From Candidatus Saccharimonadota bacterium (GTDB lineage Bacteria > Patescibacteriota > Gracilibacteria > BD1-5 > UBA2023), in the NCBI GenBank assembly GCA_963706795.1, contig OY970170.1, forward strand, positions 60,001 to 92,000: DNA of 32,000 nt. The letters run 5' to 3'. Positions 1 to 27,037 of this stretch are shown here, in pieces (the stretch's first letter is position 1; each line of letters opens with the position of its first letter). The translations under genes and the position numbers were made by a program. Below the pieces are notes generated by a model. The model searched no databases, was not told where the DNA came from, and saw only the letters and a list, made by a program, of their open reading frames with translations.

Positions 1-150
1 TTGCTCAAATTGAGCACTGAGCACACTACTCTCCTCGACTGGAATAAGCTCAAGAATCTGGTGAACATTCGCACTAATTTTTGGATCAGTAAAATACCCC
101 TGATCTTTAGGATTTGATGAGCCGAGTACGGAGTGGTTGAGACCTGGCAT
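1..150 (-). CDS. LRR-array paralog, 5' end only (gene continues past the left edge)
   Basis: ATG at 150-148 shares one nt with the TAA of the upstream gene (TAATG). It translates to MPGLNHSVLGSSNPKDQGYFTDPKISANVHQILELIPVEESSVLSAQFEQ. The NVHQILELIP motif matches the N-terminal module of the three complete paralogs upstream. Confidence 0.6.
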   Translation of the reverse strand, partial: MPGLNHSVLGSSNPKDQGYFTDPKISANVHQILELIPVEESSVLSAQFEQ

Positions 151-1721
151 TAGTCTATACTAAGATACATATTGAATTTTTGCGAAATTTCGGCGATTTT
201 GTCAGAGAGACCTTCAAAGAGTTGACCGAAACCGTTATCTTCAAGATTCAAATGTCTTATTCATGCACTTCCGGCCGCGATTAGAAATTCGAGGAATGAG
301 TAGTGATCGAATAGACCATCAAGTGCATTATCCGAGAGGTTCAGACTTCGAATCCCTGATGTACCTGCGAGTTGTACAAATTTTATCAAATGGACTGCAT
401 CAAAATGAGTACTAAGACCATTTCATGAAAGATTTAGGCTTTTGAGCGAACAGGAAGACTCGAACTCTATAAGGTTCATAAAATCTTCGCGATCAAAAAG
501 GTATTCTAATTCACCAGACGAAAAATTGAGATCTCGGACACCATTGTTTGCCGCAGTATGTGCGAATGCGATAAATTTTTTGCTGGATAGTAATTCGTAA
601 ACACTGCTTTCTCTCCCCATATACAACGAGGTTATACCCGAGATGCCACTGAGTCGTGCAAGCTCGATAAATTCTTGATCTGACAGCACAGATGTTAGAT
701 CATAACTCATAATATACGGCCACCTGAGACCTGATTCGCCCGCAGTTCTGACAATCGAAAGAACCTCCGAAGCACTATATTCTCGAGCATCATCACCCAC
801 TCCATCACTGATATTTAAACAGAGAAGTCCGGAATTACCTGCAACACGCAATAGTTCATGGATTTTTTCGATGGGTAGCCTTATTTTAATGAGCCGATTA
901 TAATCCAGATTTAATTGGCGAATACCTGAAGTCCCCGCTACTCGAACCAGCTCGATCAGATCATCAAAGTCTCAAAAACTCTTATCTAGATCATTATTCG
1001 AGATCTCGAGAGTATGCATTCCTGACTCACCAACGACCTGTACAATCGTAATCCATTCCTGAGCACGAAAAGAGAGATTACCTGGCATAGTGATCGACAA
1101 AGCAGAGCAATTTACATCTTTTAAAAGCGAAATAGTCTCCACGAGACGGTTCAATCCGAATGTGTTTTCAAATGTAAAACTGAGTGCGACTTCATGTGCT
1201 ATCTCTTGCAAGAAGGTTTCAGAATCAGCAATATTCTCAAGCTGTATATTCACTGGCTCATCCGAAGGCATATTCAGATAATCTTCACCCTCAAAAACCA
1301 AATCCTCGAGAGCAAACTCAGTCATAATCTTTTGTCTCATGCTCTGTCGAAGCCCTCAATTATCATGAGCAAGAATAGTATTTACGTAGGCCTCTAAAGC
1401 CTCTCAGAGCGGAGTTTGCATGCCGTCTTTTCGCAAAATACGCGTCTCGAGCATATTTTGTACCTCACTAGAACTCAGAAGTGCGAGACGTTCACTATAG
1501 TCAGAGAAATTATAGTGAGCCTGGGATTTTTTAAGTTCAATCACTTCTTGCCTGACTTTGTCTGCAAAAGACTCCAAAGTTTGAAGTGACGAAGAAATGC
1601 CAGCAACATTGGATGATGGAATCAGGTTAAGGATACGACTGATATTTTCTTGGACCCTTGAGTCAGCAAAGTTCCCGACTGCGGGCTCTATGGATTCGGG
1701 GGTAAGATTATTAAGCGCCAT
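150..1721 (-). CDS. RNI-type leucine-rich-repeat protein, paralog 1 (523 aa, 5 in-frame TGA=Gly)
   Basis: ORF-track pieces 1404..1721, 972..1340 and 423..851 share one frame and are separated only by TGA. I walked the frame codon by codon to TAA at 152-150. Repeats fit AG(T/E/N)SGI(R)xLNLSxNxL, e.g. VAGTSGIRQLNLDYNRL and LAGTSGIRSLNLSDNAL. The N-terminal module is MALNNLTPES...NISRILNLIP...YNFSDY...TPL-TGA. Confidence 0.8.
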
Positions 1722-1845
1722 ATGCTAAAAGATGAATTGCATGCCGTAAGATTGTGCGATTGTTTTTATATCGGAGAAATACCCTGTGGATTGGGTGTTA
1801 TTTTGGGGAGAAGGTGCGAAAGAAGAGAGACGAGACATCTAGTCT

Positions 1846-3384
1846 TTAATCAAAAGTAAGCTGCATGCGGTACTTAGCAGCGATTGCATACATGCGAGAT
1901 ACATGTTCTGCTGACATTGCGGCGGGCCCATACCTGGCTCAGAGCTTAAGAACACCGATTCACGCGCATCAAGCGGCTTCTATAATTGCAATAGAGGCAT
2001 CATGATCGAGAAAGACATCGAGCAAACTTTGACTCGTCAGAAACAATCTACGGATCTTTAAAGCACCGACAGCATTCACAAATTTAATAATCTCTTTGGT
2101 CGAGAGACTATCAAGATTTATCATCTTTAAATTTAAGCTCTTCAAAGTATGTGATAACCCAAGACGAATCAACTCATTGAGTCAATCAACATCAAGAAGA
2201 GTTGACCCCAAAGGTTGGTTCTCCATAGAATTAAAATTCCCAGCGATATGAAATTCTCGTATACCACAACTGGTGCCTACATGGATCATATCTAAGAAAT
2301 CTTTGAGTGGATTATGCACTGCAAGACCGTTGTGTGACAGTCCAAGTACTCGTAATCCGGATTCACCTGCACGCTGTGCCAACTTTTTTAAATCTCCTCC
2401 TTTAAGAAATTTATGTAAAGAAGTGTATGCAAGATTTAAATCACGAATTCCAAAATTACCTGCAGCAGCAACGAGGGAAATAATCTCAGTGGCGGTAAAA
2501 TTGTTGCCGAAATTATTTCATGAAATATCAAAATGAGTGAGTCAAGACTGACCTGCGGTCTCGAATAATTCTACAGCTTCCAAAAAACTAAACTCCCAAA
2601 GGAGACGGTTATAAGAAAGGTTAAGAGTACGAATGCCGGATGTACCCGCCATTTTTACTAATTGGATCATCTGACCAGGAGTCAAATAATTACCCAGAGC
2701 ATTGCGGTTTAAATCGAGATTTTGCACACCACTTTTTCATGCTAGTTGAACAAAATTCAGAATTGCCTGAACATCAAGACTTTTATCGTAACACTCTGAT
2801 CAAAATGAAAGGCATAATTTTTTGCCAGTTTTCCCTGCTTGACGTATTGCTGAAGAAAATTGCAGCTCGTTTGTCTCTTGACGATATGTGTTTGGCCTGA
2901 ACTGAAGAGTGATAGTTTCGTCATTCGAAACTCCACTTTTCCTCTCAAATACACAATCTATAAGTCAGAACTCACTGATGCTTTTTAATATAATTTTTTC
3001 TTGAAACTGTGCATCACTTTCGTTGGTAATACTTGTTACATAAGCATGAAATGTCCTTCAGAGCGGAGTTTCTGTACCAGTTTTATCATGGAAAAACTCT
3101 GTATCGAGAATAGACAAAATCTCTTCGTCAGATAGGCAAATTTGCTCATCATAGTTCGCAAAATTATAGCCAATTTGAGATTGTCTAATTGTACCTACGA
3201 GTCCAGTAAGTTGGTTTGCAAGGACTTCGGTTTGGTTGTGTAAATGAGTTATATTTTCACGTTCCTTAGCAGGGACGAGCTCGAGAATCCTGTGAATATT
3301 TGCACCAATATCCACACTTCCAAATCCCCTAGTAATTGAGCTAGGAACTAGATTTTCGAGAGCGTTCTGCTGTGAAACTGACAT
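1846..3384 (-). CDS. RNI-type leucine-rich-repeat protein, paralog 2 (512 aa, about 10 in-frame TGA=Gly)
   Basis: ATG at 3384-3382 lies 4 nt after the TAA of paralog 3. Pieces 3058..3384, 2542..2727, 2182..2382 and 1969..2172 share one frame, and the gaps checked by hand contain only TGA. TAA at 1848-1846. Repeats include MAGTSGIRTLNLSYNRL, RAGESGLRVLGLSHNGL and AAGNFGIRDLNLAYTSL. Confidence 0.8.
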
Positions 3385-3388
3385 ATAA

Positions 3389-4951
3389 TTAGAGAACGAG
3401 ATGCATTTTATATTTTGCTGCAATCGACCTCAGCTTGGCTTCTGTTCATTTATCTCGTAACTCAAATCCAGTTTGTCCAATATGCAAAGACTGTATTCCT
3501 GCATACCCTGCAATCTCAACTAATTGCATCATTTCATTGTCATAAAAATCCGAGAGGATGGCGCCGCATGAAATATCCAATTGTCGAATTTTTGAAGCTC
3601 AACAAGCACGTACAAATGCATACACATACTCTGGTGCTAGAGTAAAGAAAAGGCAATTATCGAGAATTAAACTTCGCAATGATGAGCCTGGTCAAAATCG
3701 AGCTATTTCCAAGAAGTTTTCTGGACTTAATCACTCTAAAGTGATATTGGCAATACGCAGATAACGGATGCCGTGTTTGCTCGCCTGACTGATACATTGA
3801 GCAAAATCCTGTGGCGACATTTTTGTAAATGGCAATTGTTCACATATATCTAATCAAGTAACCCCTGCATCCCCTGCTACTCGCATCAATTCCGCAAACC
3901 CTTGAGCACCAAGAGCATTGTGCAGTTTGGCTCAGGATATATTGAGATAACGTACCCCAACCAATCAAAGATTTTTAACGAAGGAATATATTTCTTCTGC
4001 GTGTTGCTTCTCTCACAAATCACTGTGTGGGAAATATACATGTTTTAATTTTTGAGGACTCGCGTTTTTGAGTCATGAAAATACTTCATCCGCATCAAAA
4101 TGTGAAGGGAAAGCAATTTCAGATTCCCTGAGGGCAATCTTTTGAATTCACGAGTGTATGAGAGCATGAACAAACTCCTTTAACTGCTCTGAAGTCTCTA
4201 TTTTATAATCAAAAGAACTGATTTGGAGAGTTTGAATACCCGCTTTCCCAGCAGCATTTGTAATGCTTGCTAAGTCATCGCCAGAGAGAGTGATATTCCT
4301 AGTACAAAGATACAGACTAACAACCTGCATCCCCGCATTTCCTGAAGATTTTAAGATTTCTACTATTACTTGAAGATAATCCGCTCCTAAATTTTTTGCA
4401 TCGAGATTTATCCTAAGTGCAGAATCGGGATATTTTTTGAGTAATTCTGACTCAAATCAAGCCTTATTTGAATAGTTAATCCATGCTTCTTTCAAATGTG
4501 GAGTAGCTGCTTCAAATATGAGATTATCTAATCAAAATTCTTGTATTACTTTTTGCTCCATCTGCTTTCGAAAATCTGCTGGAGCCGAGGGTGATATGCT
4601 TGTCACGTAGTGTTTAAAAGCCTTTCAAATTTGCTTTCGCAGACCATTTTTTTGGAATATTTCAGTTTCTAATGCCTCGCGCACCTCTTCAGGCGACATA
4701 AGAATGCAATTTTCATAGTTTATGAAATTATAATCCAAAGTATGTGCATGCTTATATTTATCAATCAACCTCGTGAGTTCATTACCAATCGTAACTATAT
4801 TTTTTTGAATCTGAACGATTCATTTACGTTCCTGGTCTGAGACGAGTTCGAGAATTTGATGTACATTCTTTCCAATATCTCCACCCTCAAACACTCCATC
4901 AAATTTGATAGAATCCCCAAATTGAGAAGCGGAATTATTGAGTGCGGACAT
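3389..4951 (-). CDS. RNI-type leucine-rich-repeat protein, paralog 3 (520 aa, about 14 in-frame TGA=Gly)
   Basis: ATG at 4951-4949 starts MSALNNSASQFGDS...NVHQILELVSDQE...YNFINY. The frame includes ORF 4148..4330 (AAGKAGIQTLQISS). I scanned the frame for TAA/TAG from 4951 downward and the first is TAA at 3391-3389. The C-terminus ...IAAKYKMHLVL resembles paralog 2 (...IAAKYRMQLTFD). Confidence 0.8.
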
Positions 4952-4971
4952 TAAAATCTAGTTATATGAAA

Positions 4972-7530
4972 CTATACTGCTGTTCCTGCGCTGATTTGAC
5001 TAAAGAGATTCATCAAGGCTCATTTTTGATCTGGAGAAGCTACAAGCTCATCCAACAGATGTATGGCTGCAACAAGTAGTCCTGCCATCTGAGCAGCTTT
5101 GAGTGATTCTTGAGAAGCAAAGTTATCAACATAGGTGGCCTGAACAGCACGAAGCGTGAGATTTAGAATCATATGCTCTTGAGAACTAAAAATCTGGAAA
5201 CATTGCCCCTGAATAGATTCCCTCAATGCGGTACAGTAGGTCGCAATATCTTCACTATTAACTACATTTTTAGACTCAAGAATATTTTCTATGCTTTCTT
5301 CTTCGGTGATCTCAACGGGTATCTCAATGCCACGGAATATATCGTCGGAAAATTCAAAATTTCCAAAATATTCGTGATAAACGTCCTGTTTGGTGACGAT
5401 GATTTTATTCTCGATATCATGGATGGAGAGATTTTCTTTGGAGAGTTTTTGGTACATCGTCTTGACGTTTTGGAGGCTTGCTTCGACTTTGTCAGTGACG
5501 AGATCGCTGAAAAAATGGGCTTCCTTAAAAATCGCAAGCAGCGCGTACTGCTCATCTTTGTTGGTCGTATGCTGGATGAATTCTCGATAAAGATGGAATT
5601 CCATCGGGCGAATATCCGTCTTGTAGGCCTCGTAAACTTCAATGAGATTACGCATCGAGAAAACCTTGCGCTTTATGCTTGTAGAGAGTGAGAGTGTTTT
5701 AAAAAGTGGATCTATGAGGGTTTCTACATCTCCCGCATAAGCATTTTGGATGGTAGAAATCGCATGCGCGAGATTTTTGAGAGAAGCAAAAAACGTCTCT
5801 CGATTGAGACTCTGTCCATCCAAATCACGCTTCATGATCTCAAATCCATATTTGCCAGCTCGCATAAGCGCTCCATCCTTTTGAAGCATCATCTGGAGAA
5901 GCATGCCATAGAGCTCATTATCTATGAGATATCTCTCATCTTCATTGACAGTATTTCCGTCGAGTGCATTTTGTGTGAAAGTATTGGCATTCTGCGTTGC
6001 GTAGCTCTTTGCATAGACACGTAAGCGGTTGTACGATGCTTCATCAAAGGTATAACGACCTTGTGAGTAACGCTTCTTTTTTGAATTTTGATCCGGATCA
6101 TTTCCAGTCATGATCATACAAAATCCTGACTTGACCGTGATAGAACCAAGCGCATTTGGAAGCTGAATTGTATGACCAACTCGTCGTGTTAAAACGTCAT
6201 TGAGTGCCATAAAAACCTCAGGACGAATAAGATTTACTTCATCAATAATCACAGGCCTACCAAGCTCTGCAGCCTTGTAGATGGCCATGAGGTGGTATTC
6301 GGTAACAAGCGAAGACTTCCCTGGCTCAAAACTCTCAAAGAGCTCCTTGATGCTTTGCTTAGATTCTGCATCATCACCTGAATTTTCTCATCTATAGTAT
6401 GTCTCTTCGACCATACGTTGCAGCGCATCTTTTTCGTTCAAAAAATCAAAAAGCGCATGAGCTCTCTTTTGGAGGATTACTTTCGGATCTTTGGCTTCTT
6501 CTACAATAATGGAATCCTTATTCGATGACGAAAACATCGACCTGGAAGTGATTACTTTTTCGAGCGTGAGATCTGATACGTCCATATCTTTTGAAGCCGA
6601 TGCAAAGATCGGATCGGTACCGAGATATTCTTTACAGAGGAATCTCGCAAGTTCCGTTTTACCGCTTCCAGTATCTCCTGTTAGGAGGATGACCTTTCAG
6701 CGTCCAAGATCGCGTAAAATATCGTCGATCAGCACGATTTCTTTTTTTGTCAGCACATATCCCTTTTCTGCAGAACGCTGGACTGTTTTAAAAAGTTCGT
6801 ACTTACGTGCAAGATCTTGGATTTCTGGATTGAGTGCGAGAGTGTTGTAGACGTTCTCATTACTAGCATGAATTGTCTGTTCAGACGTATCCAGTCCATC
6901 AATAAATGCATAGATGGAATCATTTATATCGGTAGCAGTCTGTCATCGATCGCTGATGTTATATCGATTTTTGGACTTAATCGCCTTTAAAATTGCCGAT
7001 TGCACATGCCCACGAAGCTCTCACGCCGAAAAATCCTGTCACTCTACCGGCAATAGTTCTTGGGATTTAGTCTCAATATTTCTTTGTAATGCCTGATAAT
7101 GCTGAATATCCAAAAGAAATGCCTGCGCAGCGGTTGCAAGCTCTGTACGGGCTTCTTTTTCAAATCCTGAAAGTCCTTTTTCACGAATCTGCACAAGGGT
7201 GTATGGAGTCTTGTTTCCGTAAAGAAAGGTCGTATTTCTTTCCGCATAGTACACAAAAAACGCTTTTACAAAGCGTTCATCCTTGCAGTGAAGAAGGGCT
7301 TTAAAAAGAGAAGTATTCTTGGTTTGCCCCTCGGTGAGACTGAACATATTTTTAACTCAAGCGAATTCTGTATTAGCAGTAAGATATTTGCCAAGTGGCG
7401 TAGTATCCGCGTCAATATCAGTGAGGAATGCGCTCGTTATTGGAAGCAATTTGTTATATTTTGAATCCAAAAAACGTAGCTCGTGATCAATCGACTGAAT
7501 ATCGTTGAGTGCATCGCTTATCGTGTGCAT
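4972..7530 (-). CDS. AAA+ ATPase, AAA_5 (dynein/MoxR/McrB-like) family, 852 aa, first gene of the LRR operon
   Basis: ATG at 7530-7528 (MHTISDALNDIQ...). Pieces 7039..7347, 6388..6585 and 5020..6288 share one frame and are joined by TGA. The TGA at 5020 is read through to TAG at 4974-4972. Walker A is LLTGDTGSGKT (6655-6678). Walker B and the following region read RPVIIDEVNLIRPEVFMALNDVLTRR (around 6238-6258), typical of AAA_5. Confidence 0.8.
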
Positions 7531-7571
7531 GAGAAAAATCGTGAAGAAAGTCTACAATGAGAACAACTTCG

Positions 7572-7600
7572 ATTTTACACGAAAAGCGCACAGGTTGCAA
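7572..7600 (-). promoter_or_regulatory. Putative sigma70-type promoter of the ATPase-LRR operon
   Basis: On the minus strand: TTGCAA (7600-7595), a 17-nt spacer, then TAAAAT (7577-7572). The -10 element lies about 40 nt upstream of the ATG at 7530, inside a 243-bp AT-rich divergent intergenic region. Sequence pattern only. Confidence 0.45.
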
Positions 7601-10542: not shown

Positions 10543-10656
10543 AGCCTGTAAGATATGAATATTTAGATGAAAAGCGAGGTGCTTTGTGCTTCTTGCATAT
10601 ACTTCCGTGGTTTACCAAAATGTACCGAAGCGCAGACTTCATCTATTTTTAAAAAT

Positions 10657-11427
10657 ATGAATCCTCTTCAAACACGACAAAAAATCATCTCGCTTCTCGC
10701 GGAATATTTTGAGCCAAAGCCTCATGTACTTGCCTACTGGCTCGGAGGATCTGATGCGAATAGTGAGAGTGACGAATACTCCGATCTGGATATTTTTTTG
10801 TGTGTCAAAGATGGAGAAGAGAAAAGCGTACTCGCCGAAGCTCAAAACATCCTAGAAACTCTGTGAAATCTCGACTACAAAGAAGAGATCAGCTACCGAG
10901 AAAATCAGAGCTCACAGACTTTTCATATCAAAGGTACTTCCGAACATTTGCTGATCGAAATCTGCACTATTCCACAAAGCGTATGAATGCAATTTACCCT
11001 GTGACATCCAGCATTTAAGCCAAAAATTATCTTTGATAAGGCTGGTGTTATCACTTTTGTACCACTCGATGAGTGGGCGCTCAAGCACAAAATAAGTACT
11101 CAACTCGCAGAGCAAAAAAACCTCATGTCCGAAAGTTCACGAGCTCTTAAATACATCCAAAGAGGCGAATATATCGAAGCAACAAACTACTATATCAAAT
11201 ACGTATATTTGCCACTCGTTTCCGTTCTTCGAATTAAGTACACGCCACTTTTACATGACTGGTTGCGGATCCATATTTCTCGTCACTTTCCTCAGGATGT
11301 TGCATTGAGACTCGAAGATCTGATGCGTTTTAACTCACTAGAAGATCTCTGAGGGCATATCTCTACAGCTCGTGCATGGTTTTGAGAAGTGGTCGAAGAA
11401 GTAGAAAAAGAAAAGACTCATTCCTAG
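10657..11427 (+). CDS. Nucleotidyltransferase-domain protein (Pol-beta-type NTase fold, 256 aa)
   Basis: The motif WLGGSDANSESDEYSDLDIFL fits the G(G)S...DxD NTase signature. The frame continues through four TGA codons to TAG at 11425-11427. The start could instead be the upstream in-frame start at 10567. Confidence 0.65.
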
Positions 11428-22392: not shown

Positions 22393-22839
22393 TGGTGGAG
22401 ATGACGGGAATCGCACCCGTGTCCAGTGGGTCGCATCAGGCATATCTACTTCTATAGGCGACTTCGATTACGCACGAACGATAGGAAGGGCCGAAGAGCC
22501 GAGCGCGCGTATAGTTTTATGGTCAAATCAGATCCGAAAACCATAACAAATGGATCTGACACGAGACGGTGATAAGACATAGGTACCCATCCAAATCCCT
22601 ATGAATTTTCGCCAAGACCAGCTGGTCGGGCTCCGTTAGAAACGGAGGGCGAGTGTTGAAGCTAAATTAAATTAGGCAGCAACGTACGCAGGTGTCATTG
22701 CATTCTTGAATGCAGCGAGTCCGCGAGCAACACGAGTGTTTGCAGTTGTTTTTGTTCGTGGTGTTTGCGGCGGTCACGAACACCCGCCGAGAAGCATGCA
22801 AGACGAGAAAATCCCACTGTAGAATTCTATATCATCCCC
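22393..22839 (-). ncRNA. ssrA: tmRNA (transfer-messenger RNA), about 447 nt
   Basis: On the minus strand the 5' GGGGATG pairs with the 3' CATCTCC-A-CCA, including the G3:U70 wobble that is the AlaRS identity element. The T-arm is ACGGG-TGCGATT-CCCGT and CCA is encoded. An internal tag frame GCA AAC ACT ... GCT GCC TAA (22743-22672) gives ANTRVARGLAAFKNAMTPAYVAA*. Confidence 0.88.
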
Positions 22840-23775: not shown

Positions 23776-23827
23776 AAATCACTCGGTTTTTTGCCAATGG
23801 AAGCGGCTTCTGCTATGCTTGGAATAT

Positions 23828-26800
23828 ATGGCCGATCCAAAAGAACAAGCCCCTGCTCAAGCCAAAGCAGCTGCCCCAAAAAACGAACTTATCAATTTTA
23901 AAGAACTCATCGCCTGATCCGATGGGGATAGTTCTGTGTCTGATAAAGAGGCAGTCGTAATTGCATGCTTTGATAATGATAAATTTATACAGCTCTCACC
24001 CGAGCAAAAAGCACGATGGGTAAAGGAAATGGTTCTTATTCTCAAAAACTTCCATATTGAGAAGCGTGAAATTCAGGCCTTTTGTGATATTGCTCGCAAG
24101 CAGATCAAAAACGAGCTCAGCCAGGGAAGCGAATTTATAAACGATCTGACGGACAAGATGGGTCGAAGCCACTGCGTTACTCTCAAAAATACAGATTATT
24201 TTCCAACGAAGGCGGACGATATTCAGCGAGTTGCGGGATATTTTCGTCATATTTATAGCGATCCAGATCAGCGCGAAAAATATGGGAATTACCTCCAAAA
24301 TAATCCTTCTGAAAAAGAAAAGTTTCTGAAGTATTGGGCAGATGCAGACAATCTCACGCGCTATTATCTCAAGGCAAACAAAGAGCCTCAGATCATCGAT
24401 AATATCAACGCATTTGCAGCCGGTCTTCAGGCTCAAAAAACAGTCGCCAAATCCAAAGAAAAAACCGAGATAAATCCTAAAGAAGTCGTAAACAAGGCTT
24501 CAGAACTCATACCAAGCGCAGAGTGAGTGAGTCTCTTGAGTAAACATCTCTCGGTGGATTCGAATGTGCATCTTGCACTCGTTGAGAAGCTCTCAAACAA
24601 CCCAAATCTCATCTCAAAATATCTCACGCACTTTGCAGCAAATGGGAAGGCTCGTGATATCATGCTCGCCGAAACACGTGGCAATGTCGCGCTTGCTTCA
24701 CTCGAATCTGCGATCTGGAAATCGCTTGCGAACTATGGAGTCATCGCACCAAAAAATCTCGGACTGAGTGGCATTGATGCGAAGGGAACGATGATCTTGA
24801 TGTCCAAAAATATCATCCAACGACATTTTAATCTCGGAGAAAAAGTTCCACATCTCGAATTTGCCTTTGCGAAGCTTCGGGCCGTACATGGCAATTTTGC
24901 GACAAATGAAGATGCAAAGAAGGCGATCATCGAAACTTTTGGTGGTAATGCCGAACAATTCAGCAAAAACACCAAGCTTCAAGCCGAGATTCTTGCGGTT
25001 CGTGGTGTACCGTCGGTTGAGCCAATTCAATCATATATTGAAGAACTCCACCGAGGTAAAAAAGACCTCCATCGCACTATCCAAACAGGTGATGCTGGAG
25101 CGATCAAAAAGATCCTCGATGGACAAGATATAGACACGGCGCGCATCGCTGCACTCACAACACCATACGATCTTGAGACGAATCGTATCTCCGTTGCACG
25201 TAGCAAGGAAGCAGGTGGAGGATTTGTTTATCAGAGTGAATTCGCCTATATCTCAGAAGTTCGCAAGCAGTCCTTCCGCGAAATCAACCTCGTCAACCTT
25301 GAGCACTACATTGCCTTTGTGAAGGCAAAAGGTCAGAATGTCGACACGGCGCTTATGCACCTCGTGGGAGTTTCGGATTCGACGGTGTGAGGCATTGCAA
25401 AGCTCGCGGCTCTCGGGAACCAGATTGGCGTGGACGTAATAACCGGCACAAATACACCAAGTGATCGCAAAGAACTTCAGGGGCTATTTAAGACACATTT
25501 GCTTCCGCATTTTAAACCGCTCGTTGAGCAATTGCAGATCAATGCGATGGGGAGTGAGCTCGTAAAAATTATTGGGAAGGTTACGGGAACACCACTTCCA
25601 GCTCAGACTGAACGTGCGATTATTGCAGCACTCGAATCCAAAAATGGTCTCCGCCGTACGAATTCCGAATACGTAAAGATCATCCTCGAAAATGTATCTG
25701 ATGAATGACATCGAGCACAGATTTTGAGAGAATTAGCGCATTCTCGCACATCTCTCGATGTTGCAACTGCGCCGGCCTGAGTCAAAAATGCAAACAAAAA
25801 TCTCTCACCAGAGATGACAAAAGCACTCGAAGAAGCTAAACTCAAAACCAAAGGAAAGGCCTTTGAAATCTTGAGTGCGGAGGATATAAAAATCCTCACT
25901 GAGATGACGCGGGATCCTAAAAAATACAACCTGAGTCCGACCGATCTTGCTGCGATCCAAAATCTCATCAAGCATTGGAAACTTCAGTCAAATCTTCGTA
26001 ATAATGCGAGTCTCGCGGCTTCTTCTGGAGCAATTGCCAAGGCAAAGACCACAAAAGACGGAGTCATGCTCGCGGATGCACTCGACCTGCGTACACAAAA
26101 CCAGATCGAAGCCGAAGGCGCAGCCAAGCGCCGCGCACAATTGACCGAAGGCATGACCGCCGCACAAATCCTAGAGCAGAGTGAAAAAAACAAGGATTTT
26201 AAAGCACGAATCACCGCTCTCGATAACGCTGAATCCCAAGCAAAAGCCTCTATCGAATGAATAGATCGCGAAACCAGCGGCGTGCTCCGAAGCGCTTCAC
26301 GATCAGAAACCGCGCAGCACACAATGCTCTTTGGTGGCTATGGCGCAGGGAGTTTTACAGAAGTCTCATACAGCTATGACAAGGGTTGGGAGAATACTAC
26401 CGAATCCGTGAGTGTCCGTCGCCGATGAATGACTCAAGATGCTGATACGCCAGACAAAAGATCTGCGGCCGCAAACGAAGAATGAACACGAGGAGTAAGA
26501 TGAATGTCTGGAACTCCAACATTTGTCAGTCTCGATACAGCCGAAAGCCGCGACTTCCGTAAGCCTATTTCGCTTGATCCAGATGGACACTTCGTACTTA
26601 GGCAGTGAGCAAAGAGCGGGACGATATTTTTGCAGATTGATCAGAACGAACGTATCAGTATTCCAAAATCACAGGCCAATATCGCCCTCTCCCTCATCGA
26701 GATTGCTCAAAAGATCGGTGAAGTCGACATGATCCGCAATATCGGACCAATGATTGCACAGATGAGCGCGCACGGCATCTTTGCAAATCTAAAAGATGGC

Positions 26801-27037
26801 ATGTCCAATCGCGAGGAGCTCGATGTCATGAAATATCTCGTACAACTCTATGGCGTACAAGACGTCAATCTCGAGGCAACCGATCCGACAATGCTCGCAA
26901 ATTCGATTAAGCTCAACTCGCAGAAAAAAGAGAATTCGTTTTATGCTCAGGGACTCAAAAAATGAATCCTCGACAAGGACGGCAAGCTCAAGGTCGCCAA
27001 CCTCGAAAAGCAGATGCAGATGCTCAAACAAGCATAA
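23828..27037 (+). CDS. Large hypothetical protein (1069 aa, about 11 in-frame TGA=Gly), no domain recognised
   Basis: Five ORF-track pieces (23936.., 24527.., 25430.., 25814.., 26630..) share one frame (start coordinate mod 3 = 2). All gaps, translated by hand, contain TGA but no TAA or TAG. ATG at 23828, TAA at 27035-27037. I see no signal peptide or TM segment. The protein is Ala/Lys/Glu-rich and looks helical. Confidence 0.75.

Follow-up and report, generated by a model that had tools for sequence, protein, structure and literature searches.

Gene organization and genetic code of the locus

We analysed a 32-kb stretch of contig OY970170.1 (positions 60,001 to 92,000, hereafter the window), which belongs to a Gracilibacteria genome present as one contig of 1,267,896 bp (1.27 Mb). 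At the left end of the window, on its minus strand, lies the array that is the subject of this study: the gene of a large AAA_5-type ATPase, three complete genes for leucine-rich repeat (LRR) proteins, denoted P3, P2 and P1 in the order in which they follow the ATPase, and the beginning of a fourth, P0 (Table 1). This composition, read in genetic code 25, had been described in an earlier note made from the sequence alone and is borne out by our gene map, as is the tight coupling of the genes claimed there: the ATPase and P3 are spaced by exactly 20 nt, P3 and P2 by exactly 4 nt, and the stop codon of P1 overlaps the start codon of P0 as TAATG at 148–152. Absent from that note is the spacing of 124 nt between P2 and P1 (1722–1845), inside which a mini open reading frame (ORF) is found. 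Compared by eye with the N-termini of P0 and of a further paralog of the same genome (P0027) and with the C-termini of the paralogs, this mini-ORF joins an N-terminal piece (..TGYFSDIK..) to a C-terminal tail (IAQSYGMQFIF), and it looks like an internally deleted paralog, that is, a deletion scar.

The genes of the array are legible only when TGA is read as a sense codon. With such a reading the ORFs of at least 150 aa in the window sum to 16,200 aa, as opposed to 3,542 aa under code 11, and the code-11 ORFs across the array region are short and broken. In an alignment of nine ATPase orthologs made from their DNA, 329 of the 870 residues opposite TGA codons are glycine (glycine background 3%; tryptophan ~0.1%), and the UGA codons within the AG-SG-I motif of the LRR repeats fall on conserved glycine positions. 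The genetic code of the window is therefore code 25, in which UGA specifies glycine.

Table 1. Features of the array in the window and gene order at related loci. Identities are those of the ATPase to the window ATPase; LRR counts are same-strand genes after the ATPase, called with the family hidden Markov model.
Feature or locus	Window coordinates	Strand	ATPase identity	LRR genes	Description
ATPase	4972-7530	-			852 aa, 7 in-frame UGA=Gly
LRR paralog P3	3389-4951	-			520 aa, 14 UGA; ~147-aa N-module, then degenerate 31-residue LRRs; family HMM E 2e-192, N-module HMM E 3e-49
LRR paralog P2	1846-3384	-			512 aa, 10 UGA; repeat anchors every 31 aa
Mini-ORF	1725-1838	-			37 aa, MSRLSSFAPSPQNNTQSTGYFSDIKTIAQSYGMQFIF; inside P2/P1 gap
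LRR paralog P1	150-1721	-			523 aa, 5 UGA; Pfam LRR_1 match
LRR paralog P0 (fourth)	1-150	-			first 50 codons, ATG 148-150, continues past left edge
Promoter-like TTGCAA-N17-TAAAAT	7572-7600	-			within 243-nt intergenic region upstream of ATPase
L001			56%	5	5 LRR genes, then 820-aa gene
L016				7	856-aa ATPase, 7 LRR genes, large VWA gene
L010			59%	at least 8	LRR genes up to contig end
L008			58%	at least 2	at least 2 LRR genes
L009 (= L011)			42%	~7	2 LRR, 827-aa gene, 4-5 more LRR (one split)
L002/L003			41%	2 (L002)	787-aa gene, then 2 LRR genes
L013			41%	1, short	one 205-aa gene (N-module + one repeat), then 809-aa gene
L012			40%		825-aa gene, zero LRR genes
L007			55%		start of large gene at contig end

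The ATPase resembles the MoxR-class enzymes CbbQ and NorQ

Two stretches of the window ATPase (~aa 280 and 395–483) match Pfam AAA_5, with a score of 45.7 bits where the cutoff is 22. A single AAA_5 module spans ~aa 265–510, with a Walker A motif (GDTGSGKT, 285–292) and a Walker B motif (IIDE, 428–431), and is flanked by helical regions of ~260 aa on the N-terminal and ~340 aa on the C-terminal side. The other P-loop matches in Pfam remain under their cutoffs, among them nSTAND3 (24.2 bits versus 27.2), whose match covers the P-loop only. A word-indexed search of a large protein collection returned 13 full-length relatives, the two closest at 54–56% and the rest at 38–48% identity and one of them labelled Candidatus Gracilibacteria, together with nine distant ones; across 13 members of the family neither the Walker A nor the Walker B residues vary.

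As a profile of the ATPase gave no meaningful match to PDB sequences, the fold was read from an AlphaFold2 (AF2) model of the ortholog P0001, which is 56% identical to the window ATPase; the model is of moderate confidence (pLDDT 65.5). The top Foldseek matches of this model are CbbQ (6l1q) and NorQ (9qh8/9qh4), with target-normalised TM-scores of 0.56–0.65, followed by dynein AAA modules and McrB; the segments corresponding to the helix-2 insert and the pre-sensor-1 hairpin (~318–353 and 477–526 of the model) have pLDDT values below 50. NorQ has been solved in complex with the VWA domain of NorD. On profile matches and predicted structure, the window protein is thus assigned to the AAA_5/MoxR class as a large member.

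The earlier note had entertained a split sensor of the NLR type, which finds no support. In NLR/STAND systems the NTPase and the repeats are normally fused; here they are encoded by separate genes, a STAND-class NTPase is lacking (nSTAND3 being under its cutoff), and the predicted fold is that of CbbQ/NorQ.

Linkage of ATPase and LRR genes is conserved in related loci

Related loci, most of them reached through the ATPase, were read with code-25 ORF calls and with hidden Markov models (HMMs) built in this analysis. Conserved linkage in related genomes, which the earlier note had itself named as the decisive test of its proposal, was found: ATPase and LRR genes keep company in nine independent Gracilibacteria loci, whose ATPases are 40–59% identical to that of the window. 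The number of LRR genes ranges from zero to at least eight. A reverse test, which started from the LRR protein P0031 rather than from an ATPase, led to L016 and recovered the same arrangement. Between L016 and L001 the ATPases share 82% identity, yet seven LRR genes follow in the former and five in the latter, so that LRR copy number changes between close relatives, as does the number of repeats. L016 (731–14485) and L001 (5750–17710) are located on two contigs of one assembly, GCA_020049755.1, and represent either two strains or two copies in one bin.

The association is incomplete at its margins. L012 carries the ATPase and a VWA gene (see below) in the absence of any LRR gene, from which it follows that the ATPase–VWA pair functions without LRR proteins. 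Conversely, a search from the LRR protein P0053 led to the short contigs L014 and L015, on which at least two LRR genes occur with no ATPase within 2.3 kb upstream. The genes upstream of the LRR genes on these contigs (L014, 2350–4275; L015, 1–2334), which include ClpP, are on the opposite strand.

These partial loci are what would be expected if an independent, fast-evolving LRR family had merely settled beside a housekeeping MoxR-VWA chaperone. We nevertheless hold such incidental adjacency to be very improbable: the window genes share one strand with intergenic gaps of −1 to 20 nt (the P2–P1 interval apart), equivalent arrangements recur in eight further loci although their ATPases are only 40–59% identical to that of the window, in L001, L009, L013 and L016 LRR genes stand between the ATPase gene and the VWA gene, and the family of the N-terminal module of the LRR proteins is essentially confined to these genomes.

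As for the surroundings of the system in the relatives, proteins that resemble, as judged from their sequences, specificity and methylase subunits of type I restriction-modification enzymes follow it in L013 (5891–9066), and a gene with a Fic domain (Pfam) stands ahead of it in L001 (4896–5651). Both are weak hints of a defence-type neighbourhood, which the window does not share. No relatives were found on viral contigs.

A putative HExxH-VWA protein is the constant partner of the ATPase in the relatives

Every relative with enough sequence (L001, L002/L003, L007, L009, L012, L013 and L016) encodes, in addition to the ATPase, a large protein of ~800 aa (787–827 aa), and these proteins are mutual orthologs at 41–45% identity. 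Searches of Pfam, NCBIfam and PDB sequences recognised neither its VWA nor its HExxH region, and the assignment was obtained through a distant homologous pair, L006, in which the partner is more readily classified. Columns 542–724 of the partner profile align with residues 462–642 of the L006 protein (hhalign, 98.6% probability, E 6.7e-16), and the Pfam VWA match on the latter, at residues 511–687, overlaps most of the aligned stretch. All five Gracilibacteria orthologs, and L006 as well, conserve the motifs DxSGS and GGTND; for the third position of the MIDAS motif, ADSD of the orthologs is aligned with ITDGE of L006. The VWA region makes up the C-terminal ~240 aa of the partner, with no effector domain after it; the additional region is N-terminal and contains the HExxH motif, which is an invariant HELSH in the five orthologs and an in-register HEIAH in L006, as well as a downstream LHxLxNxxDDIxVN motif, near the N-terminus of the protein, whose register is likewise conserved, including in L006. 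Judged by these motifs, the ~800-aa partner combines a C-terminal VWA domain, complete in its MIDAS motif, with an N-terminal HExxH.

The L006 pair lies outside Gracilibacteria. Its ATPase (P0014) shows 26% identity and, at 755 aa, a similar length, and its partner shares the HExxH...DDIxVN signature and the VWA domain, but it shows no UGA recoding and no LRR genes. The two-gene ATPase/HExxH-VWA module appears to be old and ancestral to the LRR-bearing version. In L006 (95–11392) the pair adjoins genes for a topoisomerase, a sigma factor and a TraG/VirD4-like coupling protein, conjugation-type neighbours that suggest that the ancestral module can travel on conjugative elements.

Taken together, the sequences of the relatives indicate that the constant core of the system is formed by the large AAA_5 ATPase and the HExxH-VWA/MIDAS protein, to which the LRR array is a variable, lineage-specific addition. 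This overturns the premise of the earlier note that the LRR proteins stand in for the VWA partner, since the operon in the relatives always includes a VWA/MIDAS protein as well and L012 has this protein and no LRR gene at all. In the window itself no VWA-type ORF was found within the 32 kb. As the array runs off the left edge, and as the VWA gene follows the LRR genes in L001 and L016, whose ATPases are 55–56% identical to that of the window, the VWA gene of this genome most probably lies beyond that edge.

Architecture and predicted fold of the LRR paralogs

In each LRR paralog an N-terminal module of ~145–147 aa (N-module) is followed by the repeats, and a short conserved tail closes the protein. 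This module can be aligned across all lineages, including L002, and features an invariant Y-x4-Y pair (Y70 and Y75 of P1) in the context Y-[DNTY]-[FY]. The repeats have a period of 31 residues in every lineage (31–32 in the window), number from ~1 to 13 among the paralogs and follow the consensus AGxSGIxxLxLxxNxLxxxLxxxDFxELVKQ, in which the L and N positions are conserved and the x positions variable. Positional entropy is highest at repeat positions 12, 13 and 15, which are the canonical x positions of LxxLxLxxNxL; position 3 and the helix positions 18 and 22–23 are nearly as variable.

Conventional searches capture this family incompletely. Pfam LRR_1 matches P1 at 26.2 bits against a cutoff of 20.6 and leaves P2 and P3 under cutoff, and LRR_8 matches one L002 paralog at 48.7 bits. 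Against PDB sequences P1 gave no meaningful match; a paralog from L009 matched the LRR protein 3goz (E 3e-8) and, more weakly, designed alpha-repeat proteins of 31-residue period. We take 3goz to be the Legionella effector LegL7, a bacterial LRR-only protein. A single-sequence query with P1 of a collection of 5.8 billion proteins gave zero matches, probably because the LRR words swamped the candidate list and because the genes of the window genome are stored there as code-11 fragments.

A structure was modelled with AF2 for the UGA-free stretch of P1 (aa 251–432) and comprises six units in which a 13-residue helix alternates with a short strand (pLDDT 79.5, pTM 0.78). Foldseek ranked TIM barrels first by E-value (TM-score 0.40–0.46), and the top TM-score, 0.52–0.55, went to the tropomodulin LRR domain 1pgv. 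A TIM-barrel reading, to which weak ComA/HMGL-like Pfam matches would also point, was rejected in view of the variable repeat number and the clear LRR consensus. We read the predicted fold as an open RNI-like solenoid, with which the Foldseek result is consistent without being decisive, because the number of repeats varies from ~1 to 13 and the Asn-ladder consensus is present. As in RNI-like or NLR-type LRRs such as 3goz and 1pgv, a ..GIxxLxLxxNxL.. segment is followed by a helix, strands alternate with 13-residue helices, and the x positions are variable. Distinctive of the Gracilibacteria proteins are the repeat length of 31 rather than 28–29 residues, the AG-SG motif ahead of the strand, the unique N-module, the ..AKQYxMxLxY tail and the absence of a fused NTPase. 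The designation of the repeats as RNI-type in the earlier note is supported as regards their LRR nature, by periodicity, consensus, relatives and model, and is approximate as a label in view of the repeat length.

A crude hydropathy scan detected neither transmembrane segments nor signal-peptide-like N-termini, in agreement with the earlier note, and all parts of the system look cytoplasmic.

Within several genomes the N-module is markedly more conserved among paralogs than the LRR region, with identities of 73% versus 48% in L001, 72% versus 39% in L010 and 63% versus 50% in L009. The window paralogs are old, and their array yielded only short and weak matches in a search for DNA-level repeats and thus no recent gene conversion.

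The LRR genes of L001 (8330–15270) and L010 (1124–9960) share a further peculiarity: their first ~17–20 nt (ATGTCCCCACTCACTCC..., encoding MSPLTP) are near-identical in nearly every paralog and in the VWA gene of L001. A C-rich leader (...ctctccc) precedes most internal LRR genes but is missing ahead of the VWA gene and of the first LRR gene; a Shine-Dalgarno sequence is absent. The shared start could act in translation initiation, mark a tract of gene conversion or serve as an N-terminal signal. In L009 (20335–21428) one paralog is split into an ORF consisting of the N-module only (165 aa, P0023) and an overlapping ORF consisting of LRRs only (224 aa), which is due to a frameshift, a pseudogene or an assembly error.

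The N-module family is rare and multiplied in the window genome

An exhaustive HMMER search of 1.84 billion representative proteins with the N-module returned 31 matches at E ≤ 1e-3, 15 of them at E ≤ 1e-10. About 28 of the matches are genuine; most come from loci already found, all full-length ones bear the same LRRs, and several are fragments of 105–185 aa produced by code-11 translation. Six matches, P0024 (P1), P0025 (P2), P0035 (P0), P0027, P0041 and P0039, are encoded on the same 1,267,896-bp contig, and the window genome therefore holds at least seven LRR paralogs. The array is hence longer than the window shows, as the earlier note had suspected, and its fourth paralog is real: P0035 (106 aa), from the same contig, matches without difference the 50 P0 residues that the window contains and then runs on as a full N-module. 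P0055, at first taken for a twin of this paralog, was dropped as an internal fragment of the same gene. At 90% identity the full-length protein P0054 clusters with P0035, from which its shown N-terminus differs only in that UGA is read as Trp; by comparison with it, P0 would be about 517 aa long. Assuming at least seven paralogs of ~1.5 kb and the ATPase, the system occupies ~1% of the 1.27-Mb genome.

A candidate three-component MoxR-VWA system with interchangeable LRR subunits

In characterised MoxR-VWA pairs the ATPase ring grips and pulls a VWA adaptor, with the client held by the MIDAS site or by other surfaces (PMC13036017, PMC9976466, PMC4660213), and the pairs act on dedicated clients, Rubisco in the case of CbbQO and the nitric oxide reductase cNOR in the case of NorQD (PMC4660213, PMC13036017). 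The Gracilibacteria system resembles CbbQ-CbbO and NorQ-NorD in that its AAA_5 core folds closest to CbbQ and NorQ and in that, in the relatives, the same operon supplies a large partner, at ~800 aa similar in size to CbbO, whose VWA domain is C-terminal and whose MIDAS is intact. It departs from them in the size of the ATPase, which is ~3 times larger (852 versus ~260 aa), bears helical N- and C-terminal extensions and is too dissimilar in sequence for a PDB profile match, in the HExxH of the VWA protein, in the added variable LRR array and in the absence of client genes for Rubisco or nitric oxide reductase.

A second point of reference are the MoxR-vWA ternary conflict systems, in which the pair is joined by a variable recognition component and by effectors and which are predicted to act against invaders (PMC7159879, PMC8195603); their third component is VMAP, iSTAND, iSTAND2, TERNS3, FtsH or a beta-propeller (Kaur et al. 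2020, 2021; PMC7159879, PMC8195603). They have in common with the system described here a MoxR-VWA pair, a faster-evolving third component with repeat or recognition domains and recurrent diversification. In ours, however, this third place is taken by an LRR protein that carries a private N-module and is present in zero to at least eight tandem copies instead of one; the ATPase comes first and the VWA gene varies in position, as opposed to the order third component, MoxR, vWA; the VWA domain is C-terminal and without trailing effector domains; the ATPase is much larger; and the host is a reduced bacterium from the candidate phyla radiation (CPR) rather than a multicellular one, CPR having been left out of the multicellularity statistics of those papers. 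Modules of the VMAP, iSTAND, TERNS3, FtsH or beta-propeller type gave no match in Pfam, NCBIfam or PADLOC, and NCBIfam and PADLOC returned only P-loop noise and a weak mad8 match (22.5 bits).

Literature searches, which included two Gracilibacteria genome papers (the locus goes unmentioned in both) and the papers on MoxR-vWA ternary systems (no LRR array is described in the latter), revealed no published description of this arrangement, and nothing closer emerged to contradict the earlier note on its novelty. A 2019 report of 'hypervariation' was considered as a possible account of the same locus and discarded, as it concerns an unrelated PTD-repeat surface protein. The system is thus a three-component variant of MoxR-VWA, undescribed as far as we could find and confined to a small clade of Gracilibacteria.

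We propose, with what we judge to be even chances of being right, that this variant couples a MoxR-VWA remodelling machine, whose two proteins are apparent in the sequences of the relatives, to interchangeable LRR subunits that would dock through their shared N-module. The ATPase would, on the analogy of CbbQ-CbbO, NorQ-NorD, RavA-ViaA and midasin, form a ring acting through the VWA/MIDAS adaptor; we infer that the LRR paralogs would dock on this machine by the common N-module as exchangeable subunits, that their variable concave faces may bind different protein targets, and that each paralog could in this way make a different ligand the object of ATP-driven remodelling or of HExxH-dependent cleavage. 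The targets would be expected to change quickly, because the LRR genes are rapidly gained, lost and diverged; they might be proteins of phages or of the host cell on which these episymbiotic bacteria depend. Our leading guess for the biological role is conflict or host interaction, given the variation in the number of LRR genes and of repeats, the putative remnant of a deleted paralog in the window and the variability at the ligand-facing x positions.

Several observations weigh against this proposal. Sequence alone does not distinguish an adaptor from a client; among the invariant residues of the N-module there is no acidic one that would make an obvious ligand for a MIDAS; the window paralogs conserve the N-module scarcely better than the LRR region (36% versus 32% identity); the fold search for the LRR region was ambiguous between TIM barrels and LRRs; the window displays no VWA gene; L012 dispenses with LRR genes, and L014 and L015 have LRR genes with no ATPase close upstream; and the window surroundings are those of housekeeping genes rather than of a defence island.

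The first of these points opens the way to an alternative that we regard as rather doubtful but worth weighing, namely that the LRR proteins are the clients or cargo of the machine, host-interaction effectors or adhesins that are folded, processed, assembled or exported by means of the MoxR-VWA-HExxH pair. The precedent of Rubisco and cNOR as dedicated clients (PMC4660213, PMC13036017) speaks for it, as do the presumed host dependence of Gracilibacteria (PMC11452946, PMC6851277) and the share of the 1.27-Mb genome, ~1%, that the system takes up. The best solved-structure sequence match of the repeats, 3goz, is a bacterial LRR-only protein, and the MSPLTP start common to all paralogs and the VWA protein in one clade might tell the HExxH domain what to process or target. 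That start, however, is conserved neither in the window nor in L009, and its conservation at the DNA level together with the leader may instead reflect translation initiation or gene conversion. The paralogs have no signal peptide or transmembrane segment in the crude hydropathy scan, secretion genes are not consistently adjacent, and a single chaperone for two to at least eight diverged clients that share only a 145-aa module can equally be described as docking.

The alternative of a split NLR-like anti-phage immunity, which we think unlikely, casts the LRR proteins as a germline repertoire of receptors that would sense invader proteins, the ATPase-VWA pair as a threshold switch and the HExxH region as a protease effector leading to growth arrest or cell death, and is modelled on the MoxR-vWA ternary systems with their pair, variable recognition component and effectors (PMC7159879, PMC8195603). 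Variation in copy number, rapidly diverging LRRs, repeat expansion inside genes and a deleted remnant are marks that an arms race typically leaves, and the type I restriction-modification and Fic genes that adjoin the system in L013 and L001, as well as the weak mad8 match, would fit. Set against these are the lack of a STAND NTPase and of the known third components or effector-associated domains in Pfam, NCBIfam and PADLOC, a gene order and ATPase size unlike those of the described ternary systems, the housekeeping context of the window and an HExxH domain that matches no known peptidase family; the absence of the system from viral contigs is neutral. A bolder form of our own proposal, which we advance tentatively and in the expectation that it may well fail, is that a reduced, host-dependent CPR bacterium would keep a germline repertoire of seven or more cytoplasmic LRR receptors, which would plug through the docking module into one MoxR-VWA(-HExxH) machine. 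This would amount to a split and modular form of innate immunity or host recognition, a functional counterpart of NLR or VLR repertoires built on a MoxR instead of a STAND NTPase.

MoxR-VWA pairs are widespread, but only for a few of them has a client or a way of choosing targets been established. If the proposed coupling of a MoxR-VWA machine to docking LRR subunits is correct, target selection would here have been handed over to a modular and fast-changing set of LRR proteins, which would make the substrate choice of MoxR-VWA systems testable by comparison and by experiment. That a reduced genome invests ~1% of its length in the system implies a role of some weight in the lifestyle of the organism, be it in defence or in dealings with a host. 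Every part of the system is also invisible to standard annotation, in that code-11 gene calling fragments the genes and Pfam misses the VWA domain, the HExxH region and most of the LRRs.

Other features of the window

The promoter-like site reported in the earlier note upstream of the ATPase is present in the sequence at 7600–7572. Matches to the promoter consensus, however, number 24, compared with 21 ± 4.5 expected from shuffled sequence, and since such sites are no commoner than chance, the function of this one as a promoter is plausible only.

The remaining genes of the window are of the housekeeping type and encode an MFS transporter, MGDG synthase, YecM, G6PD, ABC transporters and the RNA polymerase subunits rpoB and rpoC, along with a transfer-messenger RNA (tmRNA). 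Two proteins on the plus strand are without a Pfam match at E ≤ 1e-5, one of 286 aa (10567–11427) and one of ~1070 aa (23819–27037) encoded just upstream of rpoB. Although ARAGORN reported zero tRNA or tmRNA genes across the window, the tmRNA gene on the minus strand at 22393–22839 is recognised by Rfam (RF00023) at 82.3 bits, against a gathering score of 47.

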